In this document: positions 1 through 38,401 of the stretch, piece by piece | Layout of the letters: each line of letters begins with the position of its first letter | Position numbering within the stretch: position 1 is the stretch's first letter | Assembly: GCA_036172245.1 (NCBI GenBank) | Contig: JAYWIR010000055.1 | Location: 186,001-250,000 of the forward strand | Direction: 5' to 3' | DNA length: 64,000 nt | Source: Raillietiella orientalis | Taxonomy: Eukaryota | Made by a program: the position numbers and the translations under genes | Notes under the pieces: generated by a model | Databases searched by the model: none | Seen by the model: the letters and a program-made list of their open reading frames with translations, nothing else | What the model was told of the DNA's origin: nothing

Positions 1-775
1 CCTCCCAATGGACTTCTGCGCTGGGAGCGCAGCTCGATGTTCCGATTGAAATCTGAAGTGGCCCCCGGTGCTCATGAACACTTCCACCCTCCCCTTAAAA
101 TGGCAAGAGTCGGCTCTACTGTTGCAGCATTGGGGACTCTCCTGCAATGCCCGCCGACATCATTGGACCTGGGGAGCGGTGGATCCCGATTGTGTTAGGT
201 ATGGGGAACGGGAGTCCCTCCCCCACCTCCTAGTGGATTGTGTTGCTTTTTGGCCCCTTTATTTCCGCTTTGCCGCGGCCATCGGAACCCCTGCGGCAAC
301 CCCAGGGACGCTTTAAAAGCCCTCTTCGTTGCCGGCGCCCTCCGGCCAGCAGCCTCGATAGCGGCCTTGTGCTGCCTTCGCAGGATCGTCGCTGCATGGA
401 GCACGGCTACGGGAGGACCTCGCGCTAAGGATGCCATCCAGTGCGCCTCTCAATTCCTGAGGAGGGCGTCGCGATGGCCCCAACTGGATCCTCCAATGCA
501 GCAAGAGCTTGCCGGCATCCTGAGAAGGATGATGCGGCCCCAGCAGCAACAGTGATCCCTTCCCGTACCCTCCCACTCTTTTTTTCTTTTTGTTTATTTT
601 TTTTTGTTTTTTTCCCCTTTCCCTGCTGCCATGGTGGACCGTACCGGTCTGCGAACCGGTGTCCTGGCTGGTTCCGTGGTTCTTCGTGCTTGGCTGCAGC
701 ATTGCTGCAGCCACTGACATTTTTACTATAAAGTTTATTTTTTTAATAAACGACCCGGAGAATTCCGGGTGAAAA
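1..775 (+). mobile_element. L1/Tx1-like non-LTR retrotransposon, 3' part (copy 1; runs off window start)
   Basis: C-terminal zinc-finger-like motif DCVRYGERESLPHLLVDC with a frameshift near 300. Clear similarity to 2700-3476. Stop at 553-555, T-rich 3'UTR, AATAAA at 745-750, terminal hairpin acccgg-agaatt-ccgggt, then GAAAA. Confidence 0.85.
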
Positions 776-779
776 TCGA

Positions 780-3476
780 ATGCCTTCTGCCGATCGGAGC
801 TAGGAGCACTCGGCACCCACTCAGATTCGCAGTCTTCTGCAGCGCTTTTATTCCTCCCTGTACGCAAGAACGCCTCCCGAGCGGGTTGTCTCACGACTCC
901 TGCTCCCGGAAGGCGCTCCAGCGATCGGGGAGGAGGAGAGAAAGAACCTCGACAAGCCTTTCACGATGGACGAGATCATCTCGGCCATCGGAAAGCTCAA
1001 GAGGCGCAAGACTCCAGAGGAGGACGGCCTGCCGGCGGAGTTCTTTCAGTGCTTCGCTGCAGAGCTGACCCCCCTGGTGCTCAAGTTGACACGGCTGATC
1101 CGAGACCAAGGCGATGTTCCCGCCTCTTTTCGGTCTGCCAGGGTGAGGCTCCTTCCTAAGGGAGGAGATCTGAGGAGCATGAACAACTGGCGTCCGATAA
1201 CGATTGTGAATGCGGACGCCAAGCTGCTGGCTGGACTGTGGGCTGCGCGGCTGTGACAGGTAGCTGACAGCTTCGTCAGCCCGGAACAGACGTACGCTGT
1301 TCCCGGGCAAAGCATGGAAGCGAACTTGTTCTTCGCCAGCACATGGTTTTATGTGCAACGCGAAGAAAAAAAGAAAAAACGGAATGTCGGCAAACCTGAT
1401 CTGGGGGCGCCAGCGCGGCAAGTAAGGGACGACCGGGAAGGGAAGGGGGCTCTAGCGATCGCAGTCGATCTGCACAAAGCGTTCGATTGCGTGGACCAGG
1501 AACTCCTTCTGGAGCTCCTGGATCGCATGGGCTTCCCGGACACCTTAACGGCCTACCTGCGCGCCTGATGGCACAATGCGATCATCAACTTGTTTTTCAG
1601 AGGACAGCACGTGTTCGGCGTGCCGGTGAGGCGTGGCATCCGGCAGGGCGGCAGCTTGAGTCCCCTGCTCTTTAGCACCTATTTCGAACTGGTGCTGACA
1701 GCATACAGGGTGACATTGGCTGCCCAGCCAAGCTCGTGCCCAGGTACGCCGGCCGTGTCGGCGTATGCTGACGATCTTTTGCTCCTGCTGCCCATGTCCG
1801 CCCCGGCTTCGGCAGTCGAGGATTTCTTCGACTTGCTGAGCCGTGGGACAGGACTACGGGTGAACAGGATGAAGTCGTCGCTGGTTGCGGTTGGTGCAAA
1901 GTGGGCAGGACGACCTGATTGGATCCCCCTGGGGATCCCCACAGAGAGGTACCTGAAGTACCTCGGCGTTCAGTTGGGGGACTTTTGCCAGTCAGAAGCC
2001 TGGTCAGGTCGTCACCAAAAGGTAGAGTTGCCAATCGGCCCGTTCCTGGAAGGCAAGTTCCTTCTGCCGGAACGGGCCGCGGTGTGGAACGCGTTCGCGG
2101 CTTCCATCCTCCGCCCCCTGCTTTTTGTTTGCCCTGTCCCCCCCAGTTGGAAAAGAGGACTAAGGACCTCCTCCGCATCGCCCTCTGGGGCAGCGGAAGG
2201 CCTCGTGTGCCTCTAAGGGACTTATGCGCTCCGCGTCGGGACGGCGGTCTTGGCCTCCTGACGATGGAGCGAATGGAAACAGCTGCGGTGGCGTACTCTA
2301 GCCATCGCAGCGAAAATGTGGAACACCCCTTGGTGCGTTCCGGCCAGCCTTCTCGCCAGACGTGTGTCCGGGACTGAAGGACTTGCGTCTTTTCTTCTGT
2401 GCCCCGCCCGGAAAATAAGAAGATGCGGAAGTTGAATAACCCAGGAGCAGAAAATTGGAACCGCCTGCGATTCGGCCCCAACGCCTGCTGCACACTGCGG
2501 ACCACTTTGGAGTATCCCGCCAGGAGCACGTGGGCGGAGACCACCCCTTTGGCTTCGACGCTGCCCTTCCTACGGAGGGCCCTATCCAGCGGCCGGAAGC
2601 CGAAGTGGCAAGTCTCCTGCCGTATCGCAGGAAGAGAGAGGAAGATGAGCGGGTGGACCATGGGAGAACTGGCAGACGCCACGACCCCGAGTGCCCTCCC
2701 GCGTGGACTTCTGAGATGGGGAGAGCTGCTCGGCATTCCGACGGATGACCTGAAGTGGCCCCCAGTATTAATCGGATCCAGGCTTCTCCCCCTGAAGTGG
2801 CAAGAGTCGGCGCTGCTGCTTTGCACTGGGGTTTACCCTGCAACGCGCGCCGCTTCCACTGGACGCGGGGAAGTGTAAGGCCTGAGTGTGCCGAGTGTGG
2901 GGAGCAAGAATCGCTCCCCCACCTATTTGTTGACTGTGCTGTCCTCCGACCCCTATGGGAACGGTTCGGGACGACCCTCGGACTCCCGGTGGCCAGCCAA
3001 CCCAGAGACGTTCTCCGTCTTCTCTTCGTGCGGGACGCCCTGCAGCCAGCTGCAGCCGTTGCAGCACTCTGCTGCATCCGAGGCATCGTGGCAGCCTGGA
3101 GCGATACTTGCGACGGAGGAGTGGATGCCAACGAGAGGGACGTCATCCCGTATGCGGTCTGCTTCATGCGGAGAGCTACAGGATGGACCCAGCTGGGTAC
3201 AATGCAGATGGACCTCGAGGGAATCCTGCGAAGGATGGACCCTCCTCTCAGTGGACTGTGATCCCTTCCCTTCCTTCCAAACTCTTTTTGCATTTTTCTT
3301 TGTTTTTATTTTATTTTTTGTTTTCTTCCCCATCCCCCTCCACTGCCGAGGAGCGTCACGCCGGGCTGCGTCCCGGCGTCCCGGCAGGTCCGGTGTTGTG
3401 TAGCCGTTAGTGGGGCCTTATACCACGTTTTTGTAGAGTTTTTAAAATAAACGCCCCGGGGGTACCCTGGTGGAAA
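780..3476 (+). mobile_element. L1/Tx1-like non-LTR retrotransposon, 5'-truncated and decayed (copy 2): RT plus C-terminal zinc finger
   Basis: RT motifs KTPEEDGLPAEFF, WRPITIVNADAKLL, AVDLHKAFDCV, RQGGSLSPLLF, YADD (1764-1775), KYLGV, plus CAECGEQESLPHLFVDC. In-frame stops (1254-1256, 1566-1568) and frameshifts. No endonuclease or ORF1 upstream. Same 3' terminus as copy 1. Confidence 0.92.
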
Positions 3477-4739
3477 CCCCGAACTTCCCAGAAGACTGTG
3501 CGAGGGCCCCGCCCTTCGCCTCTTCGCACCGCGGTGACCGCAGCCGCGTGCTGTGCCCTGCAGCCGCTGCGGACGGCGCCAGCAACCGCAGCGACGGAGA
3601 TCAGCCACCCCTTTCCTCATCCTCTCGTTGCTGAGGGGCACGGCGAAATGGAAGCACCACCCGAGGCACAACCGGAAGAAACTTGCCGGCATCCTGGAGA
3701 AAATGTGGAGTGCCACTGGGTAACAGACTGAGACCCCTTCCCTCGCTCCCCTCACCCCATACACTTTCACCCCTTCTTCGTTCCATACTGGTCTGTTTAT
3801 TTCCCTTCTTCCTGACCTTCCCCACGCAGTCCTTTTCCGGCGAGCAAAGGACTTCTCCGGGACGCGCGGAAGTGGTGGTGCAGCGCCGCCACTACGGCAA
3901 GACTGAAGGATCCGTCGGGGGATCCACGGAGGGTCCACGGCGAATCTCCGGTTCACTGAAATGGGCGCGGAGCCCACCTCCTCCACGGGGCTGGAGTCCC
4001 GGCAGTGCCGGCTGCAGAGCTCCTCTGCTCCACCCACGGCAATGGAATGGGGTCCGGCGAGACCTCTTGCCGGATGGGTGGTGGCCGCGGACCGCTACCG
4101 GAATGACCACCTCGGAGGGAACCCGTCTGCTGCTGCTGCTGCTATGGAGACCGGTCCGTGCCTTAGCCCTCCTCTGGCGTTTGATAAGGAGGAGAGGTCA
4201 GGAGGGGGAGCTGCCGCCGAGGGGAAAGTGGACGCAGCCTCCGCGCCTCCCGGAGGAGCCACGTGCCCTCGGCGCGGTTCCTCCAGGAGCCACCACGCGA
4301 GACGACGCCCTGTTTGCGCCCACGTAGATGACGCTGCAAGCAGTGCGCAAAGGACGCCCTCCAGCGCCCTGCGCTTCAAGAGCTGCGCGGGCAGACCCGG
4401 ACAGGCTGCAGGGAGCACCAGGGGACTCCGCAATTCCCGGGAGTCCGTCGAGAAAGGTGGCGCTGTCGTAGACGCCTCCCAAAGCAGAGAGTTTCAGGAA
4501 CCCGGGGAAGAGAGGGAAGCGAGGGGGGTGCCTTTCCCCTCCGTTATCTTCCGCACGAGGGAAGGCCTTTCCTCACCGGGAGAGAAGCCGAGCATGGTCT
4601 CCTCCTGGGTGCTGCCGGAGAGGCGCCAACTTTCCGGTAGGGTTGCTGAAGACACCCGGAGCTCCAAGGGAGTTCGTGAGGCTGCTGCTGGAGGTGCTGC
4701 TCTCTGAGCACCTGGCGGGGGAATGGGATCGGAAGGACT

Positions 4740-9856: not shown

Positions 9857-10678
9857 GTCGGAGGCTTTGTGGTTAAGGCTTCCGCGCGTGGCACCATGCG
9901 TCGCGGGTTCGAATACTTCGGCAGATAACTGACGCCACTGAGTCGTTTGGGTTCCGAGTTTCTCCTGCAACGGCGCTGATTGGCCGAGACATTCGGGCGT
10001 GGCCCCGGCGGTGGATAAAGCCGGCGGCCTCCCGATGAAGGCCGGAACAATGGGAGTCGACCTTCGGGTCCTCCCAGGAATCAAGGAGTGGGGAGTTCCC
10101 CCTCCGGTCGTGCAACGGAGAGTGGACCCCCATCACCGGGGGACCTCCTCCTGTTTCAAGCTGGAGCAGGAGCTACCTCCCTACGATGGGCACTTCTCCA
10201 GCTGTTCACAGGAGCAGATCCCCCTGTTGGGGGTCCCTCCGAGTCGCCTCTTCACAGAGTGCAAGGAAGCAAGCGATAGCGATTCCCTGCGGGAAGCTGC
10301 AGCGCCCCTTCTGAGTTTCGGAAGTGTCCCTCCGGGGTTCTCTTCAGAGGAGTGAACAGGAGCGGTTCCCTTGCGGGCTCCCTGCGGAGAAGAAAAAATG
10401 GAGAGGATCACTCCCCTCCCAGGGGGTGTCCCTCCGGAGAGAATGAGGAAGGAGATTCCCTTCGGGGTTCCCCTTCGGAGACAACCAGGGTGGGAGATGC
10501 GATCCCCCCCTCCGGAAGGATTTCTCCCCAAGCGTGAGAGGAACGGACTCCGAGCCCTTCCAGGATTCATAGGGCGGATCCCCATCCCGGGATGCCCCCT
10601 ATCCTGAAGAAGAATTACAATGAAGAATTACACGCCCCCCCTGCGGGTTGCCGCGGGCGGAGAGGCGTGGAAACAAAA
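9857..10678 (+). mobile_element. tRNA-headed SINE-like structured repeat, copy A (near full length)
   Basis: Head gtcggaggctttgtggttaaggc...gggttcgaatacttcggc has A-box-like and B-box-like motifs and a pairable acceptor-like stem. Body is homologous to 23975-24896(-) and 55468-55775(+). Degenerate TSD candidate caggactcc (9842) / caggacttcc (10679). Confidence 0.7.
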
Positions 10679-10761: not shown

Positions 10762-12009
10762 TCACATGGTTCTTGTGGACAGATTGGTGGGCACCTCGGT
10801 CATCGCGGACCCGATCGATGACATGCCCGCGCCCGTCCGGTGAAGGCAGAGAGGCACTGCACCCGACTGGTCAGCACTCCGGAGCACTGTGGCGGGCTGT
10901 TCATGCAGCGTCCTCCCGGGTCTGCGGCATGAGGCGGCGTCCCGCAAGGACTTCTTAAAGTCCTCCGACAAGAAGGCGTACAGGAAGGGGTTCACGCAGG
11001 AGTTCACGTAGGCCAGGCAGTTGCATATGATCTGGGCGACGACCCTCCCCTGGCTGTCTCCGCGGAACAGTCCAAGGCTCTTCAAGAGCAGGATGACCTG
11101 GATGGGGCACCAGCAGACGGCGAAGACAACGACGAGAGCGACCGCCAGCCAAGTGATCCTCCTGCGGCGCCGCAGTGAGGCGCGGGAGGAATGCCCGCCG
11201 ACGGCGACGCTGCTCCACAGGCGCCGGGTGATCCGGACGTAGAGGAAGGTCATGGAGACCAGCGGCAGGAAGTACGACGTGGCAAAGAACACGACCTGCG
11301 CCAGGGGGAAGCTGAAGTCCTCGTGTAGGAAGCGGCACTTCCCAGAGGTGCGTCCGGCCTGCCCATGGACCCGGAGCACCGGCAGGCAGACGAGTAGAGC
11401 GACCGCCCAGGTCAGGGCCGCCGCGACGGCCGCGTTCCCGACCGTCCGGATCGTCCTCGAGGTGATGGGGTGGATCACAGCAAGGTACCGGTCCAGGGAC
11501 ATCAGGACCAGGGTGTACACGCTGACGTACGCCGCCACGTGGATGCAGTACTGGACGGCCTTGCACCAGGCTCCGCCCAGGGTCCAGCGATCCTGGGCCA
11601 GGTAGGTGACTCCGGTGGCGGGAACGCACACCAGGATGAAGAGCAGGTCGGCTACGCCCAGGCTGAGGATCAGCGGGTTCGCGGTGGACCTGCAAGCCCT
11701 GCCGCTCGTCACCATGAGAGCCAGCACGAAGAGGTTGCTCAGCAGCCCCAGGAGGAAGATGGTACCGAAGAGCGGGGGCACCGCCGCGGACACGGTGTCC
11801 AGCAGGCCCTCGCGTGCCTCCAGGCACGTCGGCAGGAAAGGGAGCTTTCCGCACAGCAGGGCCTGCACCCCCTCTGATGTGATGTTCCGCGCCCCCCCGA
11901 GGTCGGCCAGCAGCTCCGCGCTCAGCAGCCGCAGCAAATTCTCGTCGTCGCCGGCCCAGGCGGGGTCGGAGGAGACGTTCCAGGGGTGCTCCATGGTCCC
12001 GCCGTGCAT
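10762..12009 (-). CDS. AstA-R: Allatostatin-A receptor-like (galanin receptor family) class A GPCR, intronless CDS, paralogue 1
   Basis: 7TM ORF with WCKAVQYCIHVAAYVSVYTLVLMSLDRYLAVIHP, CWCPIQ and LAYVNSCVNPFLYAFLSEDFKK. Start at ATG 12009 or 11994; N-glycosylation sequons NVS and NIT; splice acceptor ttttccag at 12101. Confidence 0.93.
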   Translation of the reverse strand: MHGGTMEHPWNVSSDPAWAGDDENLLRLLSAELLADLGGARNITSEGVQALLCGKLPFLPTCLEAREGLLDTVSAAVPPLFGTIFLLGLLSNLFVLALMVTSGRACRSTANPLILSLGVADLLFILVCVPATGVTYLAQDRWTLGGAWCKAVQYCIHVAAYVSVYTLVLMSLDRYLAVIHPITSRTIRTVGNAAVAAALTWAVALLVCLPVLRVHGQAGRTSGKCRFLHEDFSFPLAQVVFFATSYFLPLVSMTFLYVRITRRLWSSVAVGGHSSRASLRRRRRITWLAVALVVVFAVCWCPIQVILLLKSLGLFRGDSQGRVVAQIICNCLAYVNSCVNPFLYAFLSEDFKKSLRDAASCRRPGRTLHEQPATVLRSADQSGAVPLCLHRTGAGMSSIGSAMTEVPTNLSTRTM

Positions 12010-13130
12010 CACGGCGCGGGCGGACACCGGCACGGGGCACCCCTCTCGACGGAGGTCGTCGGCGGGGCACGCATCCCTCGGTGTCACCAGCAGCGCTGAT
12101 CTGGAAAACACCAAAGGAAACCGGAAGCTTCCCGCTTCGCGTCTGCAACGCAGATGCGGGTGTTCAATTGCCTCAGAGACGGGGCTTCCCCCCTCCCTTC
12201 GGCGCGGAACCTCCCGGAACCCTTTCCGGAGGAGAGCCTTCCCCCGGCCTTGAGACGAGTCCCTCCGTTCCCTCCCCCTCCCTTTCTCGGCGAGGAATAC
12301 GCGCCCTGCCGGCCCTACGCTTCCCCTCCGGGAGGCAAGGAGAGGTAACAGTGACCACCGCAGCCGGACGGGGGGTGGGGAGAGCATCCCCAGCCGTTGC
12401 CTCCCTGATCCGAGGGATCTAGAGGAGAAACGGATCGCTCTCGCGGTCTCTCATCAGGTACCAGGGCGGAACGGGGGCGAAGATCCCGTAAAGGGGCCCC
12501 GACGGAACACCTCCCCACTACTCCTAACGCGGCCGTCAAGGGCGAGCGCGATCTCCTCTGATCGCGTGCAGCCGGGGAGGAGCTGTGCAGGAAGACCCCC
12601 TCCTTCAGCGCTTTGCCCTCCGGCGGGAGCGCTGCGGGAGGATGGGGAGGAACAAAGCCTTGGAAGAGGCGACGGCGCGCCGGTGGGCGGGCCCATCCCG
12701 CTGCGGTCGTGGCGGGCTGCACCCCGCGGGTCCTCTTATTACCGCGGGTCCTTTTGCGGTCGATTCATGCTCATCCGGGGGCCGTGTCCTGGAAGACAAC
12801 CTACGAGAGCGGGCCCGTCGAAGGGGCGGAGGAAGAAAAGGGATGACGGTCCGCGTTCGCCCCCGCCCCCCCCCCCTACTTCTTTTCACGGCTTCCGCGT
12901 CCCACTCGCGCCCACAACTCCTCGGGTCTTCTCGCCCCGAGGGGTGGCGTGGGCCGTGGACAGCGACGGGACACAGGAGACAGGCGTGACGGGAAGGAGG
13001 GCCTTTGAGTGTCTCTCCCCCCTCCTCGAGGCATTTTTTCCTCCTGCGGAAGATCCACGGGACCAGCAATTCCAGCTGCCTTCTGGCCACAGATCACTTC
13101 CCGCGTTCCAAAGTCGGGAAGCGAGGGAAG

Positions 13131-21412: not shown

Positions 21413-22681
21413 CTATTTGGTCCTCTCCCGCTGCAGGTTTTCGGTCGGTTGCTCCCAGTCCCTGCCGTCGTGCTGGCTGGCGGCCGCCTCGAGGGCCGGG
21501 TTGCTGTTGGCTGTTCCGGGGTGGTGCGCGTGGACCCACCGGCAGGAGACGGCGTCCTTGAAGGCGTCCTTGAAGTTCTCCGAGAGGAACGCATAGAGGA
21601 TGGGGTTCACGCAGGAATTGGAGTAGGCCAGGCTCTGAGCGGATATCTGGAGGATGACCCGGAAATAGCTGTCGCTGCGGAAGACGCCGAAGCTCTTCAG
21701 CAGCAGGAGCAGCTGGATGGGCAGCCAGCAGGCCGCGAAGATCGCCATGACGATGACGACCATGGTGGAGACCCTCCTCCTCTTGCGGGCGCCGTCCCTT
21801 GCCTGCCGACCCGGGTGACGTCCGGACAGGCTCCAGAGTCTGCGTATGATCTTCAGGTACAGGCAGACGGTCACCGCCAAGGGTAGAAAGTAGGAGGTCA
21901 CGAAGAAGGCCGTCTGGAAGGCTGGGTAGCTGTGCTCCTCCGACAGGAACTGGCAGGCCCTCTTCAGCGTGCCCGCGACCGGGTCAGCGGTCGGTGCCAC
22001 CCCGTAGACGAGGAAGGCAGGGGTGCAGAGCATGGCGAAGACAACCCAGGTCAGCAGGGAGGCTGTGCCGGCGTTCCTGGGCGTCCTCAGGGAGATCGCC
22101 CCCACAGGGTGGACCACGGCCAGGAACCGGTCCAGGGACATCAGGACCAGGGTGTAGATGCTGGTGTACGCGGCGACATGGATGCAGTACTGAACGACCT
22201 TACACCAGATGTCGCCGAAGCGCCAGTCGTCGCCCGTGAGGTAGGTCAGCCCCGTGGGCGGCACACAGAAGACGATAAAGAGCAGGTCGGAGACGGCCAG
22301 GTTGAGGACCAGAGTGCCGGTCGTTCCGCGCGACGACCTCCGGCCGTGGAGGACGACTGCCATCACCAGAGCGTTGCCCGCCGCCCCCAGCACGAAGAGC
22401 GCTCCGAAGAGGACGGGCACGGCCACCGACACGAGAGCCCACACATCCTCCAGGACGAGAGGGCCGCGCTCGTGCCCACCGCACACCGACAGAAAGAGGA
22501 AGCGCTCGCAGAGCAGCGCCCGTGCCTTCTCCGGGGTCAGTTCTTCCGCGCTAGCAGCGGCCTTCCCGCGCAGCAGCTCCGCGCTGACCCGTTCCAGGAG
22601 CGCCAGATCTTCCTCAGCCCGACCGGCTGCCGAGGCCTCCAGCCGCCAGCCGCTGGCGTTCAGCGCCGCAGCGGGGGCCAT
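21413..22681 (-). CDS. AstA-R: Allatostatin-A receptor-like class A GPCR, intronless CDS, paralogue 2
   Basis: GNALV, WRFGDIWCKVVQYCIHVAAYTSIYTLVLMSLDRFLAVVHP, CWLPIQ, LAYSNSCVNPILYAFLSENFK. Likely start MAPAAALNAS at 22681; splice acceptor cttccag at 22787. Confidence 0.94.
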   Translation of the reverse strand: MAPAAALNASGWRLEASAAGRAEEDLALLERVSAELLRGKAAASAEELTPEKARALLCERFLFLSVCGGHERGPLVLEDVWALVSVAVPVLFGALFVLGAAGNALVMAVVLHGRRSSRGTTGTLVLNLAVSDLLFIVFCVPPTGLTYLTGDDWRFGDIWCKVVQYCIHVAAYTSIYTLVLMSLDRFLAVVHPVGAISLRTPRNAGTASLLTWVVFAMLCTPAFLVYGVAPTADPVAGTLKRACQFLSEEHSYPAFQTAFFVTSYFLPLAVTVCLYLKIIRRLWSLSGRHPGRQARDGARKRRRVSTMVVIVMAIFAACWLPIQLLLLLKSFGVFRSDSYFRVILQISAQSLAYSNSCVNPILYAFLSENFKDAFKDAVSCRWVHAHHPGTANSNPALEAAASQHDGRDWEQPTENLQRERTK

Positions 22682-23974
22682 GGGCGCCAGCAAGGAGCGC
22701 GGGCAACGAGAGAAGCTGCACGAGGACAGGTTCCTCCTCCCGGGAGCGCTCGGATGCGGCTCCGAGGTATGCGGGGCGCACGCCACCTGGAAGACAGCGG
22801 CAGGTTGGGGGCAGAAACTGTGCGCGGGTGCCTCCACCGCGCCCACATTGGATGGCAATGGTCTATCCCCTCCCCCTCGCTCATTCGAAGAGACCAGGAA
22901 AGCCGCGAGCTCCAGGGAGATGCCGGAGATCCTCTTCCCACCCATCCCGAAGGATGAGCGGAGGGATGCAGAAAAGGGAGAAGACCCTTCAAGGAACGCG
23001 TCTCAGGAACGAGCCTCCTCTCCCGTCCCGTTCGTCCTCCCGGAAACGATAGGGAACGGGTCTGGGAAAAAGGTAGAGGGTCCTGGAGCGCGTCCCGAAG
23101 TCCCACGAGGCTCTCCCGAGTGCGAGGTGACAGTCCCCCTCTTCCCTCAGAATCCATCTTTCCCTTACCTGAGGGGCAGCTCAGCCGACGGCGGGAAATC
23201 CGGGAAGGAGGAGTCGCCGCAGCACGGGAGAACGCATCCTACTCCAGGGAGTTCCTGCCTCATCCTGGCGGGAGGCACGTCGCACGTCCTGCGGCCTCCA
23301 TCCGTGGGACGGGCGACACGCGTCCTCCCGAAATTGCGCGCGCTGTGTCCGAGTATCCGGGAGCGATGCCGGCGGAGGGAGAGACGGGACGAGCACTGCG
23401 AGGCGGCGAGCCGTCGAACCGGCGGGACGAGCGCGCGCGGCGGAGGCTCCCGAGACAGGGGAGGGACGGAGGAGGAAGCACGGGAAAAAAGGGACTTTAT
23501 GGAGTGGAGTCCCTTCAGGACCCCGGACAAGGCACCTCTTCTGCTCTGGGGAAGCAGACCGCTTGAAGGGGTCCCCCGAGAGTCCCTTGCGCAGAACGTC
23601 ACCTCCGAGACCAACCAGAAGTGCCGAAGACAGAGTCGAGAGAAAGAGAAGGGGCCGGGGGATTCTATCCATCCTTCGGTGACTCTGGAGCCGGCCTTCC
23701 CCAGGAGGGGTAGGGGGAGGGTCACTCTGCAGTTAGCCATCGAGGAGGATCCCCAAGAATGCCTCAAGTGGTCCGCCTGGCTCCCAAAGCGCCTCCGCGG
23801 GGCCGCCCTCGAGGCACCCTGGAGGGGGAAAGGCAGCAAGGCCCTGTCCACAATGTTAGCGGAAGGGCGAGGGGTAACGCATCTTTGGCGGAAGCAAGCG
23901 TGGATCTGGAGTTGCCGCTGCCATGAGGATGCGGCAGCACCAGGGTCAGGGATCTATCTTTTCTGTTTTCCTTC

Positions 23975-24896
23975 CGTTTTTTTTTTTTTTTTCGTTTTTT
24001 TTTTTTTTTGGTTCACCAAGCACCTCAAGAGCCGTCACGCCTCTGGTGTCGGCGCTTGCAGCTCTTTGACGCTGCTCTAAGGCACCCGAGGTTGCATGTA
24101 ATTCTTCAAGATACGGAGTACCCGGGACGGGTCCTCCCTATGAATCCAGGAAGGGCTCCGAAGAAAGTTCACGACTGAGGAGGGATCCCCGAAGGGAGAT
24201 CACCTTCACCCTGGTTGTTTCCAAAGAGAACCCGAAGGGAATCTCCTCTTCCTTATTCTCTCTGGAGGGACCTTTGGAGGGGTCCGAATTTCTTCTCCTG
24301 AGGTAACCTGCAAGGGAACTGCTCCTGTTTATTCCTCTGAAGAGAATCCCGAAGGGACGCTTCCGAATTTTCTCAGAAGGGGGCTCCCCGAAGAAAGCGG
24401 CTTGCTTCTCTGCACTCTTTGGAGAGGTGGCGACACACCTACTCCATCAGTACGACGCGGAGGGTCCTCCCGGAACAGGAGGTCCGCTCCTTCACAATCG
24501 GAGGGGAGCTCCCACTCCTTGATTCCTGGAAGGACCCGAAGGTCAACTCCCATTGTATCTGCCTCATCGGGGGTATCCGCTGACGTGGTGTGTCAAGTCG
24601 GTCTGCGCACTGACCACCCGACAGCTCCATAGACTTATTGGCTGCAGCGGGGCCTTGTACCGCAAACACTGACGGAAAGTTTTTCAATGAACGCCCCGGC
24701 TTGACAGGGTGAAAACATCGGGGGCATTCGGTTTGAACTGCTACCAGTGCCGCACCAGAATGAATGTGGTTGAGCTAACGTCATCTTGCGGGAGGAACTT
24801 CAACCCGCGACGCACCGCGTCGATCCTTTCAAAGTGTTCGAACCCACGACGCTTGGTGGTTCCACGCGAAAAGACTGCAGCCACAGGGTCTCCGAC
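23975..24896 (-). mobile_element. tRNA-headed SINE-like structured repeat, copy B (full length, interrupted by a LINE 3' fragment)
   Basis: Reverse complement aligns with copy A from gtcggag...gggttcgaac through gaagaattaca. A-rich tail appears as T-runs at about 23977-24009. Six C-TTCG-G loops on the minus strand. Confidence 0.75.
24580..24715 (+). mobile_element. 136-bp 3' fragment of the L1/Tx1-like family with a 15-bp target-site duplication
   Basis: Shares cggtctgcg, ttggctgcagc, ggggcctt-tacc and aa(t)-aacgccccgg...gggtgaaaa with the 3'UTRs of copies 1 and 2. Flanked by catcgggggtatccg (24565-24579) and catcgggggcattcg (24716-24730), a 13/15 match. Confidence 0.8.
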
Positions 24897-26522
24897 ACGG
24901 GCCCAGGAAGCGAGGAGGAGGCTGAGGAGAGTTCTGCTGGGCTGAAGTGGCCTGCGGGAGGTCCAGTGGGTGGTGCGCAGGTCCTTCCGACCAGACAGCA
25001 GCCAGGGACGCACCTCGCCAGTCGTCCGGGAAGCACTACCCAGCAAGGCCAGGACAAGGAGGACCAGAAGCCGCAGTCCCGGCCTTGTCCCACGTCTTCC
25101 CGAGTTCCGTCCTCGCTCCTGTCCGTCTGCCCGGCCGTCTCCCCACCTGGCGCTCCACGGGCGTTCGCGCGCAACCGCCAAAGGCTGCGGACCCGACCGA
25201 CCGCCTCCTATGCGAATGGAGCCGCTCCCTTGGAGCCCTCCACTGCGGGATGGAACGCCTAGGGCCGCGGATCGCCCGCTGCACGCGAACGGGGGAGCGC
25301 ACCAACGCGGCCACCGATGTCCGGGAATTCCGTAACTTCGCTTTCCCCGTGCTCCAGAGAGTCCTGCTAGCTTTCTGGGGTCCGGAGGGAAGAGCTTCTG
25401 CTTCTCCACCCCCGACTCGCGAGCTACCCTTATCGCAAAGGGAATTCTTCCCTTGAGTTCGCCTCAGTCCCTCAGCAGAGCTCAGGCGGTCAGCTTCCGG
25501 TTGTCACGACGACCATAAGCTGTCCCAGGGACTCGGCACCTCCGACCCCAGGAGGTGTGCAAGGAACGGAGTAAGAACAAGGAATGCTGCTCCCCTTTCG
25601 CAGCTGCTGCGGACCTTGCCTCTGACCGTGATCCTCCCGGATGAATACCCTTGCAGGGGCACTGTCCCATTCCGCGGTTCCCGTGAAACACCGCAATTAT
25701 GTCCGGCAATTAGCGGTATCGCAGGACGACGTCCAGGGAGAGGGCACGCCTTCGCGAGACGAGGGAGGGTCACCGGGCGACCTACTTCCGGGAGCCGCTC
25801 TTCCCGGTCAGTGCCGTCGCGGAAACTCGCCAAGTCCGGCAGCTCCGGCGTGTCTGGCGCGCCAGCGCATCCCGGCCTCTCCATGACGACGACCGCATGG
25901 ATGAGTGCGTTCCTTTGTTCGAGAGGATAAATCAAAGTACTAAAAACCGTGCCATGTACGCCTGCTTTCCTTCCCGTTCTGTTCTGTTGTCCCCCTTCCT
26001 CCTCCTCATCTTCCCCCTCACTCTCCCTGAAGTTTTCCCGTCTTCCCCTTTTCCGAGGCATCTGCACGCTCAGGTTCCTCGCGACACTCAGCTCATCTGT
26101 AAACGCAGGTGCACCGTTGCGAAAAACACCATCACGAGGGCGCCTCTTATCACGGCGCTGCCATGCAACGGGATGTCGGCAGGCTCTTCGTGTTCATGGC
26201 AGGGCGAAGGCGGGGGCGGAAGCTCCGCGTTCGCTCCCTCGTCAGCACGAGACGTGTTTTGCCACCTGCCCCGGCCTGCTTGCACATGCAGACATCTGAT
26301 TTTTCCAGCTTCCCCCTTCATTCAGTAAGCCACTGTTTTCGTGAATGAGAAATGAGGAGCTCCACGAAGTTGCCTCCCGTGTTCCCGAAACGACTCCTGC
26401 AGATCCTCACGCAGAACAAACGAGAACCCCGCAGCCAAATCGATCATGCCGGATTTCGTCGGATTTGGTGTTTGTTTGTTTTTTTGAATTTTTTTTTTTT
26501 TCCACCCGAAGGGAGTTGCAAA

Positions 26523-26525
<3 letters not shown>

Positions 26526-26557
<32 letters not shown>

Positions 26558-26578
26558 GCACAAACACACACACACACA
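26526..26578. repeat. (CA)n microsatellite
   Basis: Imperfect acacac... run seen directly. Confidence 0.95.
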
Positions 26579-29163
26579 AGGAGAGCAAGGAAGAAAAAAA
26601 GGCGGACCACAACAAGACACATCGCTTTCAACTTAAGCACTGCTTCATTCTGACGAAGGCCATTGAAAGGTGCCAGTGACAAATACCGACACCGACGCAA
26701 TGGCGACCGTTCCCTGTAAGTGACGCTGCGAGCACGAACCCGCGCTCTGTCGTTTCCATGATGGATTCGAGGAATTTTCTCATTACGTGTCCTCACATGC
26801 AGGCATGCTTGCCGCTGTATTTATGGCTTTCGAATGCGATGCAGAGGCCTTGCTGATGCAAACTGGGAAATTATAAATCATAGGCTGACAATAAATTGAC
26901 ATCGCATGTCCGAAACCATTCGAGGGAACCGCAGCATCGAAAAAGCACATGCTGCGAACCAACGAGACACCCACACCTGCATAAGGCGTATTGGGAGGCG
27001 GGCTGGCAAGCCTGGCGAGAATCATCAACGACTTCCTCCTCCTTTCCCGCCAAGCACCTCGGGGCCGTTCGCGATGCGCTCTTCAGCGCAAAGGTAGGCG
27101 CTGAAGAGTCGGTCCCCTCCGCTCGGCGGACGCTTAATTGCTCCGCATTCCGCGTGAAACCTTTCCTCAGCTGCGGAAGCCCTGGCACCCCTGCTCCCGA
27201 TTATTGCGCGCCTTATCGATTTTGAAATTTTTGATCCGCGGCCAAACAGCTGTTTGGAAACTGTTCGTCAAGCAAAACTCTTAATGCGAGTTTCCCACTC
27301 ATTCGCTCATTTTTCCAATACATTTTTTTTCTTCCCGTCTCACAGGTATTCCGGGGGGATAATTAGTAGGCATAAGCCGCGTGGGCCACGTTTTTCGAAC
27401 AGGTGGAAAGCAGGTTCGTTGTCGAGTGGCACCATTGCAAGCAGTAGGGTGGAGGCTTCCGCCTCGACACTTTCCTCACGCAGTCCCCTTCCGACCCCGG
27501 TGGAATTTCTTCCAGATTCCATGCTTTGGGAGTTCCTGCATCTGCTCACACCTGCTTTCGTTGCAGCTCCTTAGCTGTGCTGTGTACACGTACATGCACG
27601 TTCCTGCATGTGGTTTGACGCCGCCCTCGCCAACGTCCACTTGCGCACTTCCATGTTAGCAAATTTGTTCGGACGCAAGTCGAAACTGCGCGGAGGGACG
27701 GACTCAGTAAGGTTGGAGCATAATTTACGACCCCCCCCCCCCCCAACTTTCGCCTGGTCACCCAACGGCTTTGGCCGGTCCCACCTGAGCAATGCCCCAC
27801 GGTGCGTCCGTGGCTGCTGCATATCCCACGTTCTTCTTTCTTTTTTTTCTTTTTTTTTTTGCGAACGTAGCCACACTGCCAGCGGCGATCCGCCCGGAGG
27901 GGGTGGTGTGCCTGGTCCATGTGCCATCTCTTCCGCGCCCAAACGTTCGTTCCATCTTGCAGCCGAACGCAAGCGGCGGAAGCAGCTTTTTCCGGGGACC
28001 TCGGGCCAGCTAATTGCAGCCGCGTAACCGATCCCACTAAAGCCACGCTGAGAAATTATTCCCTCCTTCTTTCTTTTTGTTCCTTCCGCGTCCGGTGAGA
28101 CGTTCTAACATATGCAAATCCGACAAACTTGAAGGCATGCAGCGGAAAGTTCCGTCGGTATGAATTACCGTGACCCGCTGGGCGGGCAATTAGATGAGTC
28201 GGTCCTGAAAGGTTCCGTCGGGTCTGCGGTGAAGACATGCGAATCGGAGCATAAATTGTGGCCTCTCTTCCCGCTGGCATCCGGGGCTCTTCTCCGGGAT
28301 CGGACGACCTTTCGAGCGAGGAGCGAGCCGTTCGAATGTTTCCGACCCGCACTGCCATGCAAAGCGTCGTGCAAAACGCAAGTGAAATCGAACGTGCATG
28401 CATTCCATTTGCCTTTCCTCGCCCCCCTTCCCCCTCCTCCCTTTCTTTTTTCTTTTGTGTCTAAACCAAAAAGGAAGGGGGGGTCTCGTTTTTGTTTCAT
28501 TTGAAAAAGCTCGGATGCAGCCCTCAACGCGCACTCTGTTCCTTCTGAATGCACTTTCGGCCGGTCGTTTCGCCTTCTTTTCTTTTTTTTTGCGTTTCTC
28601 TTTTGAGAAGTCATGGGGCTTCCTGGGACAGGCGGAGGTTGAGAAGATTCGCATTTCCATGTCATGGCAGGCTGGGGGGTGCTCGGTCAGCCCCAGCTCG
28701 GTGAGCCCCCTCCGCTGCCTGTGTTCAGCGGATCTGCGGCGCCGCGTTCCTGCCGCCCCGGGAGTAAACTCGGGCTCCAAAGATCCTCTGCGGACGCCCG
28801 CTCAACTGCCCTGGGATCCCCCGCATCTGGGATTGGCCGGACCCACAACGCAAAGGGGGTTGGCTCGCGAGGGCGCGGGCGGCAGGGTGGCACCCCGCGC
28901 GTCCCGCTGCGGGAGGAAGAGGTTTGCAGAACCGACCTGCCTTCGGAGTTCGCACTAGTGGCTCCTGGGTGACCGACCTCCCGGGTGGTTGGCGTGGTCT
29001 CGGCGAGCGATCTCGGACGGAAAGAGGCAAAGAAGGGAGGGGAGAGAGCGCGCGGAACTCCGGCGGGCGGAGGGCCGAGACATCCGAAGGACTATCGATC
29101 GCCGCGATCCTTGCTCTCCGACAGAGGAGCTCTCCGCGACGCCCAGCCTCCTCATCTTTGCAG

Positions 29164-31979: not shown

Positions 31980-32015
<36 letters not shown>

Positions 32016-35000
32016 TGGAAGTCCTGTCTGCAGATGAGCAAGGAGACGGCAGAGTTTCTCAAGCACAGGAACCTGTGCCTGGCCAAAGAGGTGCGTGCAG
32101 GGAAAAGGGTGGATGTGCAGGGAAATCCCGGTCTCCTCTGTTCCTTTGCGATCTCCCGCGCGGGCTACTTCTCTTCCGGTTCCTCAGCTGGAGGAGGAGC
32201 GCAGGAAGGCGGAGGAGGCCCAGGAGGAGTCAAGACAGCAGGCGCATAAAGCGAGGCTCTCAGAGAACAGACTCAGGGACAGCAGCAGGAGGACCCGAGC
32301 TCTGTTGGAGCAGGTCAAGTGCCTGCAAGCGAGGCTGGACGCCTCAGAGTCCCGCGTCAAGCATGAGAGACAGAGGGACGCCTCCGCGGCACAGGACTCC
32401 CTGAAGCATCAGGCAGAGATCCGGCAGCTCCAAGGCAAGGTTAGGGCAGCGAACTCCAGGATTTCGGAGCTGCTGCGCGAGTGCAAAGATCTGAGGACTA
32501 GGAACGAGGACCTTCAGAAGCTCTGCGACATCCTCAGGGACAAGTGAGTCAGCTCTTCTCTGCTTCCCTCCCCTGGGAGTCCGGAAAACAGACGCTCCTT
32601 CCCTTCCTCGCCTCCCTTCCCTCTCTTACGCTCTTGCCTACCCCTGCACGTCCATCCATCATTACGTGCTGAGCGGGAACTTCCGGAAGGTGGGAGGATC
32701 CCTGGCGCTGCTAATGCTCTGCTACCTTCAGCTTCGCTTCTTCCACTGCCTGGCAGAGAACGCAAACGCCCATACCGCTCTCGAAACTCTTCCTCTCGCC
32801 ACGGACCGGGTGGGAGGTGGCGCGAAATTCTCGGCCCGGTGCTGTGTTCCCCTATGTGTCTTCCCCTCTGCTCTCCCGTCTTCTGGTTGGCTGTCCGGGA
32901 ACGTCGCTAAGGACTCCTTCATCTCTCTCCTACCCCGCGTTCCCTCGAGGCGCGCACAGCTGGAGCGAGGAAGATGAGGGTCTCGGTCGAATCCCCAGAG
33001 TGGTCCCGGGCGAGCCTCGAATCCCTCCCGGAGAGGGACGACAGCGGAATTCGGGGCGACGGCAGATAAGCTCCCCCCACACACACGGGCAGCGAGACGG
33101 TTGTGAAGTTTCCAAGGACGATCAAATAGCTCAACGGAGGGAATGAAGGAAGAGCCTCGGGGAAGGGAAAGCGGGACGAGAGGAAGGGAGGGGAAATCCC
33201 GGCAAAAAGGCAATGGGGAAGGAGTAGGTGCTTTCGCCGTTTCCTCGCTGCACGAAACGTGCCGAGAAACCGTACGTGCGCTGGCAGGAGGCGGGCCGAA
33301 GGATCTACCAGAAGCGCGCGTCGAAGCACCGATCTCCTCCGTCGTCTCTTAGGAAATAACGAGCGGACCCTTTCGGCACCGCGGGAACTCCGTATCTTCT
33401 GCCGAGGTGGGCTCAAGGCGAGCAATCCGAAGGATCCACTGGGAGGAGAAGCCGCATCCGATAGTGGGAAGAAGGAAGGCCTCCAGCAGCAGGCGACCTC
33501 CGATCGGGCGCCATCAGGGGGTCGAGCGATTGAGGAACGGGAGTGTTGAGGAGCAAACACAAGGAGGAGAGGGAGGGGTGCCGGAGGGCAGGTGGTGAAG
33601 CGGGCAGCATGCTGCCGGCCGAGCGCCTACCATGAGGGAGAGTCCGCGAATCGCATATTCCGAGAGAGCCGCCTGAATGCCTAATTTGCCTTCCGAAAGC
33701 CTCCGCGAAACCCCTTTGCTTTCTTGCGCTCTACCTTCTTGGCTGGAAGCAAGCAACCCGCTGAGGGGGGTCTCCATTGGGAGAAGAAAATGGTCCGGGA
33801 AGCGCACGCACCGACCGAGAGGAAGAGGAGAATAATGATGCTGATGGGCGAGTGCTCGGGACCGCTGTATCCGGAAGGGTGTCGTGAGCAGCAAGGCTTG
33901 CTTAGAAGTTGGTGAGTGATGCGAGCCTCCAACTCCTCCTCCTCCCCGTCCTTCCTTGGGAGAACCTATGCCGCGCAGTAGGCCTGAGTGACTTGAGGAA
34001 AAAGGCTTCGTTGGATTTGCCTCGCTGAATCCTGGAAAGAACAGCTCCTTTCGGTTAGGCCGCGTGGAACTGCAGCGTGGTGACGGTTGTTCGTGTCTGT
34101 GGTCAGCAGCGCCGCCACCACGCATGCGCGAGCACCTCAACGAGGGCTTTCCGAGACACGTGCATCCCTGTAAAGATGCAGACAAGAGAACAGCTGGACA
34201 TCACAATGGCATGACCAGGATCAGCGCAATCGGCACGTTCCATCTGGCAGCCGGAAGCGAGTGGCACCGTCTTCTTCTTTTCGACGAACGCATGGCAAGC
34301 GGCCGCAGGACCAAAGGGGGGGGGGGGCAGTCGTCTAGGGAACGCGTGCGACGAAAGTCGGGTTCACTTGAGGGCGTCGAGAATTCTGGAACATGGCTGG
34401 CTAGCCAAGCAGAGTAGGGAACTTCTGCACCGACCCGGAGTGCCTGCTGTGGGGGGAAGGGGGGGTCTGGAGGAGGGAACGGGGCGGAGTCGTTGCGGGT
34501 GATGTCCCGCAAGGCAAAGCGGGAGCACTGCGCCGGGTGCCTAGGCTTAGCGGATCGCATCCGTCCCGAAATAGATCAACAATGCCGGTATCCGCCAACA
34601 ATGCCGTCCGCGTCGCAGGACGTCTGCCGCGTGCACAGTTCACCTGAAGGCGCCGTCCAGAGGCGTCCCGTGGGTGCGTTTCTCTGTTCCTCCTCGTCCA
34701 ACTACCTCCTCCTCCTCTTCCCTCCCGCTCGCCCACCTCCCGTCATGGGGAATTTGCAGGAATGCGAGAACTGAGCAGCAGAGCGCGGAGATGAAGAACC
34801 TGAGCGAGGGCTACCGGCAGAAGCTGAGCACCATCCAGACCACGGTGGAGGGGCTCCGGGTGCAGCTGGAGAGCACGGAGAACCACGTACGGACGCTACA
34901 GAAGAGCAGCCAGAAGCACAAGATCCAAGTACGGGGACGCGCGCGCTCCTACTCCTTGCCCCCCCATCCTCCCCCGATCCGCCCCTCTAACCTACTTGGG

Positions 35001-38000
35001 TAGAGAAAAGAGGGGGCTAGGCCGATCGTTGGGTGGCTTCTGTGGAACCCCTCAATCGACGCGGCCTTGGTGAGCATCCCCCTGTGGTTGCAGGGAACCC
35101 CTATCCCGGGTCCATCCTCTGCTTGAGCGCCTCTCCCTTTCCGCGTCTCCTTTTCCTTCTATCTCCCTCCGACTTCGTCCCCTCAACGGGAAGCCGCCAC
35201 GCAGCGGGTCGACCAGCTCCATCTAGGTCGACCCGCTGCGGCGGGAATGCGGCATGGCGGAGACTGACGAAGAGGACACACCCCTCACCTTCTGCTGTGC
35301 GGACTCCTGATGATGATGGTGTTGATCCCCCCCCCTGAACTCCGGCTGCCCCCAGGGACGACTAAGCACGTCCGCACGAGAACCCAGCGCGAAGGCCGGC
35401 TGCGAACTCAGGGAGGCCGCTCACTTGCTCGTCCCGAGTGGGATTTCGCGGGCCCGTGATCCTTCCCGTGTTCCTCTGTGCTCACCGCGCCGTCCCCCCG
35501 GAGTCATGCCAGGAGGGAGGCAGAGACACGCGGGATCTCACAGACCGTTCCATGCTGGCATGGGAGCCGAAGCGCGCTTCCGGGCTCCGGGACTGAGAGA
35601 CAGGGGGACTGAGGGCTGCGGGAACTCGCAGGTCCCGAGAGGAGAGAGCGATGCACCCGGACTCCGCCTCCTCCCCTCCCTTTCCCTCTTAGTGGGGCCT
35701 GCAGAGAGCGAGCGGCAGCTCGTCCAAGCGAAGGACGACGAAAGACGGGGGCCTCCTTGGACACTTCCCCACCCGTGTATCCTCTCCGCAGATGGAGAGC
35801 TGCATGCGCGAGCTGGAGGACAAACGGGAGGAGCTGCGGAATTTGCAGGAGGAGCACCGAGTGGTCACCGAGGAGCTGCTGGAGGTCCGGGACCAGGCGA
35901 GTAGCCCAGCGCGCGTTCCTCGTCTCCCGTCGCTGGAGGGGCGGACGGACAGGACGAGGGAAGAGGAAAGCCCCTCCAGCGGCTTCCTCTGCCCCCTGAG
36001 CCCCCTCAAACGCACCAGGGGCTCCTCCTCCCTGACAAACTCCACAGCGCGTCCCTCGGGTGTTCCCTAGCAACAGAAGACCGCGGCGCTGGAGAAGCTG
36101 GTCGCACGGCGGGAAGACGAGATGAAGCGCGTGGAGTCGACGACGCGGATGGAGATCCGGAGGGCAGTGGAGCAGTCCTCGCTCAGCATGGGCGATGCCC
36201 AGGTCAAGCTCCGGAGAGCCGAGCAGTGGATCGCCGAGTTCCTCAAGTTCGGACCGGTAGGTGGCAGAACCCCCTCTCTCATTCCTCCCCCCTCCCCTCA
36301 TCTCGAGAGGAGGGGCAAGAGCCGCCTCGGAGTGAGAGCGTGCGTCGTCACTCACGCCATCCTCCCTTCCCTCGCTGATGGCAAGGAGCCACCCCCTTCC
36401 GATACGAAACCATGCGCGCCCCCGCCGGAGTCGGCATCGTCCTGAGGAGCGGGAGGAAAGGGCGACGGGAGCAACCCCTTCCTCCCTTCCACGAGTTCCT
36501 CGAATGAACCTCCCTAGTGGAAGGATGGAACCCCCTGCACGAGAAGTCCGCGACGACCACTCACTCATATCCCTGCTTCGTCATTCCCGGGGGCTTTGCC
36601 TTTCCTTCTGGACAGGGGGGGCAGGAGACTCTTGGAAAGGGGCAAGTTGCAGGGTCCGGCCGGCGACCCCTTGTCCGCGAGGGATCCTAGGAAGGGCGCA
36701 GGGCAGAACGCGGCAAAATTACCCCTTTCTCTCCCTTCCACATCGATCTACGCACAAACGCCACGATCACCGGCCGTTCCCCCCGTCCAGATGTCCCACG
36801 CAGGGAACAAGAGAAAGCAAGGGAGAAGGGAGTGAGGAGTCCCGACGATGTCCGCTCTCTAGAGGCGCCCAAGACTATCGACTCCCGCGATCCGCGTGTG
36901 CTTTTTCCCCGTGAGGCGGCTGCCCTTCTCCCTCCTTCACCGGCTTCCTTCGCTACACCCAGCAGAGATGCCTGGCCGCCTCTGCTGGGGCGCACAAAAG
37001 GAAGGAAGGAGACAGGGAAGACGCGGTTGTCTTTGCGTGGACGAGGAGTACTGTTGAAGGAGCCTCGGGTCATCCTGTCATTTTCCAGGCGTTCCTCTCG
37101 CGGTGCCAGGAGCTACACGCGAGAATGGAGGCGTCCCGGGAGGGCGCCCGGCTGCTGGATTCGGACCCGTCGCTCCGGAAGGCTCAGAGCGTCGCCTGCA
37201 ACATCCTCAGCATCTCACGGGCGGACCTGGAGGACATCATGCAAGCAGCGGCGATGGCAGCAGGGTCCGAGAGCCCAAGGGCGTGGACCGACATGGCGCT
37301 CCTCGTGCGCGACTGTCAGGAGCTTCTATCAGACGTGAGTGCAAAGGCATGTGAGAGGCTTCCAGTCCCTTCCCTCCACGCTGGGGAGGGAGTTTATCCT
37401 CATCGAACGGGGTACCCCCTGTCAAGGGGCGGAGCCGCTCCACGAGGGCAGCACCACCTATTACACACCGGCTTCTCGAGGGCGCAGAACGCAGCTGGAG
37501 TGGGGGGTGGGGAAGGGAGAAGTCGCCGTCTGCAGGCATCGCGGCGGCAGAGCCAGAGGTCTCCTCTGGGTCTGCCACCGCGGCGAGCGAGTACTCCGCT
37601 CCGCGACCCCAAAGGCGGCAGGCAGCACCATCCGAAAAAGTGATCTGGCGCTCCATGCCTTCGCATCCTGGATGTTACCTGCGGCAGGGTGGTGCGTGAA
37701 CATGGTGCCACTTCGGAAGCGGTGAGAAGGGGTGGAATTTGCTGGAGACGCCTGTGCGCGCGAGGGTGGTTCCGCGAAGGCACCCGGACAGAGGAGCCTG
37801 TGGTGATTCGAGATCTAGGCGTAGGGAGATCTCCTTCTCTTGGGATGCGAACGAGAAGAACAAAGGCGGCACCTGTAGGGGGAGCCCCTACGAGAGGGCG
37901 GGCGACGAAAGCAAAGGGCCAGGTTTCGGCTTCCTCCTTTCGCAAAAATAAAAAGCACACGGACCGCAGGACTTTTTTTTGCGCACCCTTGGACTCCTCC

Positions 38001-38401
38001 TCTCTCCTTCCCGAGGAGTTTCTCTGACCTCTGGATAAGCTCGGAGCGACCGTTTTTACCTCTGCTTCCTCCTCCCACCTGCTCGCCAAGGAATAGCAGA
38101 CAAAGGAAGCGGACGCCAGTTCTCTCTTTCTGCTGCGCGACCTTCGCACGAGCCCAGACGAGGTGACCGGAAGAACAACCGGGCTCTTGTCCTCCTGCGC
38201 GCGCTCGCACCGCCTTGCGCATCCCCACACCCAGAAGGGGGGAGAATCCGGGGGAGAGCGTAAGGGCGTTGCGGAAAGCCACCCTGACCGCAGTTGTGAT
38301 CCCTCTTCCTTTCTTCCCCGATCCAGGTACCCTTCGCCGAGAACCTGGCGGATTTTTTCGCAGACATCATCCGGACAAGAGTAGCGAAGCTGGAACAGTA
38401 G
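31155..38401 (+). CDS. Multi-exon coiled-coil protein, centlein-like (5' end uncertain)
   Basis: Phase-compatible exons 31155-32090, 32188-32543, 34760-34928, 35792-35884 (or 35896), 36071-36256, 37089-37334, 38327-38401. Heptad-rich protein. C-terminus AQSVACNILSISRADLEDIM...LLSDVPFAENLADFF resembles my recollection of the vertebrate centlein C-terminus. AATAAA at 38463. Confidence 0.7.
31986..32015 (+). repeat. CAG trinucleotide tract encoding polyQ in the coiled-coil gene
   Basis: (CAG)9CAA in frame. Confidence 0.9.

Follow-up and report, generated by a model that had tools for sequence, protein, structure and literature searches.

Rodent B2 and ID elements are tRNA-derived, A-tailed SINEs that are mobilised by L1-type LINEs, and the usual length of a SINE is roughly 80-600 bp. 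The eel UnaSINE1/UnaL2 pair represents the 'stringent' type, in which the SINE and its partner LINE have a common 3' tail. The schistosome Sm-alpha SINE and the metazoan retrozymes, which contain hammerheads, are non-autonomous retroelements carrying a ribozyme, and the hominid SVA is a long composite retroposon that depends on L1. Composite SINEs are also known to arise by the capture of cellular RNAs. The window analysed here, which is the whole 64-kb stretch of animal DNA, carries three related elements (copies A, B, and C) that we interpret, with a probability of roughly 0.6, as members of a SINE-like retroposon family that is old and lineage-specific and whose elements are long (~0.75-0.85 kb) and non-coding. 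Apart from a body made of UNCG hairpins, the family looks like an ordinary LINE-dependent SINE. As in B2 and ID, a discrete 5' end with box A- and box B-like words is followed by a non-coding body and an A-rich tail, dispersed and 5'-truncated copies occur, and an L1-like LINE is present in the same genome. However, the family is two to four times longer than B2 and ID, neither Rfam nor ARAGORN sees a tRNA in its head, and its body is a chain of UNCG-capped hairpins.

Copy A, which we read directly, is a full-length element on the minus strand (23960..24896), running from a shared 5' end, GTCGGAG, at 24896 to an A-rich tail at 23975..24013 (minus strand) that consists of two A runs of 15 and 16 with CG between them. 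Copy B lies on the plus strand from 9857 to about 10700 and was found by BLASTN, MAFFT, and nhmmer; it has the full 5' end, lacks an A tail, and contains a palindromic extra stretch at 10122-10236 (within the copy, plus strand). Copy C (plus strand, 55468 to about 55790; found by the same three programs) is 5'-truncated, lacking the first ~600 nt of the element, ends in a long A-rich tail, and forms a G+C-rich island within A+T-rich DNA. The relationship proposed in the initial annotation between the element and the sequences at 9857 and 55468 is thus real: copy A matches copy B with an nhmmer E value of 2e-58, and copy C matches copies A and B with E values of 4e-26 and 9e-23, respectively. 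The identity between copies A and B is ~72% (BLASTN, largest block, 371 nt). We regard the three copies as old insertions.

The 5' end of the element is sharply defined. Copies A and B have the same first base in the alignment (24896 and 9857), their first 105 nt align with a score of 48 versus a null of 15, and the 400 nt upstream of each are unrelated (score 21.0 versus a null of 21.3). From this fixed end, the anatomy proceeds through the box A- and box B-like words to a central hairpin body of ~450 nt, a 3' domain, and the A-rich tail. The central body is composed of short GGAG/CUCC-type hairpins, many with a C(UNCG)G cap. Both strands of the copies have interrupted reading frames, the longest sense ORF contained entirely in one copy encodes 111 aa in copy A and 137 aa in copy B, and none of the 12 ORFs overlapping these two copies has a Pfam match. 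Terminal inverted repeats are absent from the copies, and the inverted pairs that were found are two internal ones. No significant target-site duplication surrounds copies A, B, or C, as 337, 191, and 308 of 500 shuffles, respectively, score as high. The dispersal amounts to three copies per 64 kb, at differing places and in differing orientations. Because of the shared 5' end, the truncation of copy C, the A tails of copies A and C, the broken frames, and the lack of terminal inverted repeats, the element bears the marks of a family of non-coding, A-tailed, dispersed non-LTR retroposons whose transcript start is defined. This agrees with the earlier description of the sequence as a non-coding retroposon. 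No further copies were found when patterns were scanned in public collections of metagenome contigs, prokaryote genomes, and viral contigs.

The length of copy A needs a correction. A stretch of 136 nt at 24580..24715 (plus strand, antisense to the SINE-like element), ending in ...GGGTGAAAA, matches by nhmmer the 3' ends of the LINE copies located at 3339-3479 (E 1e-6) and 623-787 (E 9e-4). It is flanked by a direct repeat (D6) at 24565..24579 and 24716..24730 (plus strand), identical at 13 of 15 positions with a spacing of 151. Copy B lacks the piece, and the flanking 15-nt word is present there once. Judged from this comparison, a 5'-truncated L1-like insertion is nested in copy A with a target duplication of 15 nt, and the 151 nt present in copy A and absent from copy B comprise the LINE piece together with one of the two copies of that duplication. 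After removal of these 151 nt from the 937 nt, copy A is ~785 nt long, whereas copy B measures 844 nt without a tail. The size of 0.8 kb initially assigned to the element therefore holds for the SINE-like unit proper (~0.75-0.85 kb), but not for the ~0.9 kb of copy A as it stands. Even so corrected, copies A and B are longer than the usual SINE range. In being longer than a classical SINE, non-coding, A-tailed, and modular, with hairpin modules gained and lost between copies A and B, the family resembles SVA; unlike SVA, it has no tandem-repeat (VNTR) or Alu-like parts and possesses a Pol III-like head.

The nested insertion and its 15-nt duplication show that this genome contained L1-type machinery leaving such a footprint, and a candidate for it lies in the same window. 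Two degenerate copies of an L1-like LINE occupy 1..3500 on the plus strand, arranged head to tail (copy 1 to ~790 and copy 2 from 792 to ~3500), with positions 9-678 resembling 2704-3395. Pfam detects an RVT_1 domain at 1257-2216 (plus strand, E 5e-10) and a weak zf-RVT domain at 50-316 and 2749-3261 (plus strand). By tblastn, the database relative P0121 is 63% identical to the LINE at 792-2429 over 550 aa, and among solved structures P0121 is best matched by human LINE-1 ORF2p, with an E value of 7e-40 compared with 7e-17 for R2. Two other, longer relatives, P0122 and P0126, combine Exo_endo_phos (an APE-type endonuclease) with RVT_1, and P0126 also has zf-RVT. On these matches, the element at 1-3500 can be assigned to the L1-type LINEs, with a reverse transcriptase that appears closest to L1 ORF2p, and it is the likely mobiliser of the SINE-like family. 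The family would resemble UnaSINE1 in being a non-autonomous, LINE-dependent retroposon with stem-loops in its RNA, which are predicted here. However, unlike in the UnaSINE1/UnaL2 pair, the 3' domain of the element has no similarity to the 3' end of the window LINE and the tail is A-rich. The lack of a shared 3' tail in the nhmmer comparison with the window LINE copies would fit the use of the A tail in mobilisation.

The head of copy A (24832..24896, minus strand) contains a box A-like TGTGG at nt 12-16 and an exact box B-like word, GGTTCGAA, at 24837-24844 (minus strand), approximately nt 50-60 from the shared 5' end. Both positions are near those of box A and box B in a tRNA. The word GGTTCGAA is not enriched in the window (3 seen versus 2.6 expected), but two of the three occurrences occupy homologous places in copies A and B, at equal distance from the 5' end and where the head is conserved best. 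We read the third, at 7114, and judged it to be an unrelated chance occurrence. The heads of copies A and B contain no tRNA according to Rfam at E values up to 10, and ARAGORN with default settings found none. A tRNA-Leu-like call for copy B under relaxed ARAGORN settings is noise, as 59 sites in the 64 kb pass that threshold. Runs of at least four T are absent from copy B (844 nt), and copy A has one TTTT in its head; we consider this depletion uninformative as a Pol III signature. Transcription by Pol III from an internal promoter and a tRNA-derived head are therefore readings of the box-like words that we find plausible; the former label 'tRNA-headed', which was not borne out by either tool, derives from these words only.

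It could also be that the copies are tails or internal-deletion derivatives of a longer autonomous retroelement, the body being its untranslated region and transcription being carried out by Pol II. Long non-autonomous elements of this kind exist, and both the length of ~0.8 kb and a head not recognisable as a tRNA would suit such an origin. However, copies A and B start at the identical base with unrelated DNA upstream, the only reverse transcriptase in the window belongs to a LINE with a different 3' end, and no part of the last 2.7 kb of that LINE resembles the body in an nhmmer comparison. We consider a derivation from a longer retroelement unlikely and retain the SINE-like reading.

The hairpin zone of copy A (24150..24545, minus strand) was characterised by word positions, shuffles, and stem counts. 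All six occurrences of CTTCGG in copy A, on the minus strand at 24158, 24189, 24232, 24349, 24388, and 24536, were found where the initial annotation had placed them. CTTCGG is the commonest hexamer of copy A. Its count of six over 877 nt compares with a mean of 0.35 in dinucleotide shuffles, none of 2000 of which reach six, and within the 401-nt zone the six compare with a mean of 0.26 and none of 5000 shuffles. In the whole window the word is not enriched (50 seen versus 46.6 expected), and the background in the G+C-rich half outside the copies is 34 in about 72 kb of strand, or ~0.47 per kb, compared with a density of 6.8 per kb in copy A. The accompanying statement that most of the loops close a stem is broadly right. 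The uninterrupted pairs beside the six loops number 4, 6, 2, 2, 4, and 3, so that four of the six close at least 3 bp, but the other two require an internal loop, and the hairpin at 24163 is weak.

The enrichment extends beyond copy A. Copy B has four CTTCGG words against 0.41 expected, a number reached by 2 of 2000 shuffles, and when the loop is widened to C(UNCG)G (CTNCGG), it has 11 against 1.38 expected, which none of 2000 shuffles reach. The local background of CTNCGG is 2.4 per kb per strand, compared with 6.8 per kb in copy A and 13.0 per kb in copy B. The words are confined almost entirely to one strand, the sense-to-antisense ratio being 6:0 in copy A, 11:1 in copy B, and 1:0 in copy C (17 to 1 for copies A and B together), and the reverse complement of CTTCGG is absent from the sense strand of all three copies. 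The C(UNCG)G caps are a trait of the family and not an accident of one copy, and the strand-specific excess of UNCG-capped hairpins common to two diverged copies is the unusual part of this element. Among the entries listed in a full-text literature search on SINEs and UUCG or tetraloops, none dealt with a SINE body built of UNCG hairpins.

In the alignment of the bodies, 11 cap sites can be compared: five are common to copies A and B, one to copies B and C, four are present in copy B only, and one in copy A only. The loops at three of the five A and B sites differ at the free position only (UUCG versus UGCG or UCCG). Several of the missing caps are explained by CpG decay, as with CTTCGG in copies B and C versus CTTTGG in copy A, and CTCCGG in copy B versus CTCCAG in copy A. 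Because cap sites are common to the copies and their absences are partly due to CpG decay, the common ancestor of the copies already had about ten caps, of which copy A has lost about half. We also considered whether the hexamers had multiplied by tandem or long internal duplication and rejected this. TRF finds the tail only, and self-comparison yields cores of only 10-14 nt. Within a copy, the only repeat is the 10-mer core TCCCTTCGGG, and the flanks of the caps have no detectable relation to each other. The number of caps is therefore not accounted for by recent tandem duplication. Occurrences of TCCCTTCGGG at 26505 and 31835 were read and judged to be unrelated chance occurrences.

The predicted folding of the body was compared with that of dinucleotide shuffles. 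For the body of copy A, the z score is -5.2 in sense and -2.8 in antisense, and for the whole of copy A it is -3.4 and -2.3, respectively. For the body of copy B, the values are equal on both strands (-2.7 in sense and -2.8 in antisense). The 3' domain common to all three copies, which is the part kept in copy C, has a z score of about 0. Twelve control segments from the G+C-rich half gave a mean z of 0.03 and a minimum of -2.0. Because z is low in both senses for copies A and B, inverted repeats are truly enriched in their bodies, but on both strands. Excess stability that is specific to the sense strand is seen in copy A only, where the sense advantage is ~15 kcal/mol; presumably, the special bonus that ViennaRNA gives to UUCG loops roughly accounts for it. 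Apart from which loop words occur and on which strand, no signal is specific to the sense strand.

These results bear on the suggestion of the initial annotation that the source RNA is under selection to fold into compact multiple hairpins, that the folded RNA has its own function (for example, as a ribozyme, as a scaffold for recruiting the reverse transcriptase, or as a domesticated non-coding RNA), and that it represents a new class of structured mobile RNA. The strong strand-specific excess of C(UNCG)G in two copies that are only ~72% identical would be expected of such selection, as would the swaps that preserve the loop class at three of the five shared sites and the low z score of the body of copy A. 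The pairs themselves give a less favourable picture. When the pairs predicted in copy A were scored in copy B, 115 of 165 stayed paired, but 43 of the 55 one-sided changes broke the pair; the eight double compensatory changes compare with a null of 5.2 (P = 0.12). In the reverse direction, 95 of the 125 pairs derived from copy B stayed paired, with eight double changes versus a null of 4.0 (P = 0.025). This slight excess is confined to the sense strand, as the antisense counts of 4-5 versus 3.4-4.2 represent no excess. In the five capped hairpins of copy A, comprising 55 pairs, copy B keeps 44, and a single pair has changed on both sides, which equals the shuffle mean of 1.0. The pairs of copy B have no strand preference (8 G-U-type cells versus 6 A-C-type cells), the local folds predicted for the three copies disagree at many points, and the 3' domain of all three is no more stable than shuffles.

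The covariation between the copies that was anticipated from the earlier suggestion is thus not significant, and compensatory changes are not clearly above the controls. An RNAalifold consensus of two sequences does contain long-range 'compensatory' pairs, which we distrust, as the method, given two rows, selects any pairs that are consistent. Because only three decayed copies are available, changes that took place in a source gene are inseparable from neutral decay after insertion, and the case for selection on the fold, judged from these copies, is weak. A ribozyme finds no support either. Rfam 15 at the gathering score gave no match in the window, ribozymes including hammerhead and HDV-like ones among the families searched, and at E values up to 10 copies A and B gave only sub-threshold hits of the microRNA and snoRNA type, which we take to be chance. 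The family is like Sm-alpha and the retrozymes in being mobile and non-coding, with a structured RNA that is predicted here, but unlike them in having no hammerhead, HDV-like, or other Rfam ribozyme match in the window or the copies. We therefore regard a functional fold that would define a new class of structured mobile RNA as quite improbable.

The same Rfam searches are relevant to the idea that the element joins a Pol III head to a body captured from a structured host RNA, with which the caps would have been inherited; the donor might be an rRNA spacer, an rRNA expansion segment, or some other hairpin-rich RNA of high G+C content. This idea would give the body an origin, and it draws on the precedent of the composite SINEs and on the fact that UNCG caps are typical of long structural RNAs. 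However, neither the rRNA models nor any other family of Rfam matches at E values up to 10, and we give a captured body an equally low probability. That the element is a DNA transposon or of the foldback type, its hairpins being palindromes in the DNA with no meaning at the RNA level, is very improbable, although both strands of copies A and B beat the shuffles with an antisense z of -2.8 in each, since terminal inverted repeats are absent, an A-rich tail and a 5'-truncated copy are present, and the loop words are distributed 17 to 1 by strand in copies A and B, which symmetric palindromes with random loops would not produce.

According to the SINE-like reading, the source copy would be transcribed from its internal promoter, probably by RNA polymerase III, and its RNA would fold into a chain of small, very stable hairpins. 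An L1-like LINE would supply, in trans, a reverse transcriptase that uses the A tail of this RNA and copies the RNA into nicked target DNA, giving rise to dispersed and 5'-truncated copies. Once inserted, the copies would decay neutrally, and the CpG inside each cap would often be lost, as in the changes from CTTCGG to CTTTGG and from CTCCGG to CTCCAG. A more specific proposal is that Pol III transcribes the source gene into an RNA of ~0.8 kb, that the body of this RNA is an array of about ten mini-hairpins with C(UNCG)G caps under selection, and that the array raises the success of retroposition. We put this forward as a tentative and rather doubtful extension. If true, the fold of the array might make the RNA compact and nuclease resistant or allow it to bind a host or LINE protein, the body would be of a kind not described so far for a SINE, and the family would offer a natural system for studying how RNA structure governs trans-mobilisation by L1-like enzymes. 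The excess of caps would matter only if both caps and stems are maintained in the source genes, in which case the family would be a rare mobile element with an RNA architecture visibly shaped by selection. If the broader reading is right, the family is a further lineage-specific SINE-like one, whose main use lies in the annotation of this genome.

As to that annotation, the SINE-like copies would explain three gene-free stretches, including one beside each of two neuropeptide-receptor genes. The proteins of the window point to an arthropod-like animal that lacks close relatives among the database entries. By database identity, these genes are represented by two allatostatin-A-receptor-like GPCR ORFs, at 10762-12450 and 21413-23002 (both minus strand), with best database identities of 45-50%, mostly to arthropods. 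The window also contains a gene for nuclear cap-binding protein subunit 1, no more than 56% identical to any database entry, as well as BTB-Kelch and alpha-mannosidase exons. Copy B, in antisense, adjoins the first receptor ORF at its 3' end, and copy A lies ~1 kb upstream of the second in sense. This difference in placement relative to the receptors argues that copies A and B were inserted independently and were not part of a gene duplication.

Within copy B, one of the copies of the SINE-like retroposon family, about 115 nt at 10122-10236 on the plus strand match their own reverse complement (nhmmer E value of 1e-6). This stretch contains a second, paralogous version of a hairpin that is present only once in copy A, another member of the family. 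Hairpin modules are both gained and lost between copies of the SINE-like family. At 26490-26600 on the minus strand, TCCCTTCGGG and then an A run come directly after a (TG)n microsatellite; this site is unrelated to the family.

The plus strand at 1-3500 carries a head-to-tail pair of degenerate L1-like LINE copies, the second starting at about 792, directly at the end of the first. The Pfam-matched reading frame of the LINE is closed by a stop at 1566-1568. The 3' UTR of these copies includes some 50 nt of T-rich sequence, terminates in GGGTGAAAA and ends without a long A tail.

The base composition of the window shifts sharply at 38000-40000, with a G+C content of 60-65% over 1-38 kb versus 35-40% over 40-64 kb and a CpG observed/expected ratio of 0.85 on the G+C-rich side versus 0.58 on the other, and both sides of this change carry ordinary genes. 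Database protein comparison identified two paralogous allatostatin-A/galanin-type receptor ORFs on the minus strand (10762-12450 and 21413-23002), which are spaced 9 kb apart within the G+C-rich part. In both, a long reading frame precedes the 7TM domain, and the top database identity is only 45-50%. The same type of comparison placed the gene of nuclear cap-binding protein subunit 1 (CBP80) at 43719-45834 on the minus strand; the gene contains one exon-like ORF, which is 591 codons long. Because its identity to any protein among the database matches listed is at most 56%, a close sequenced relative of the host is absent from the database. Eight consecutive CTG triplets were also observed at 31990-32020 on the minus strand, where the G+C-rich region has a long open frame.
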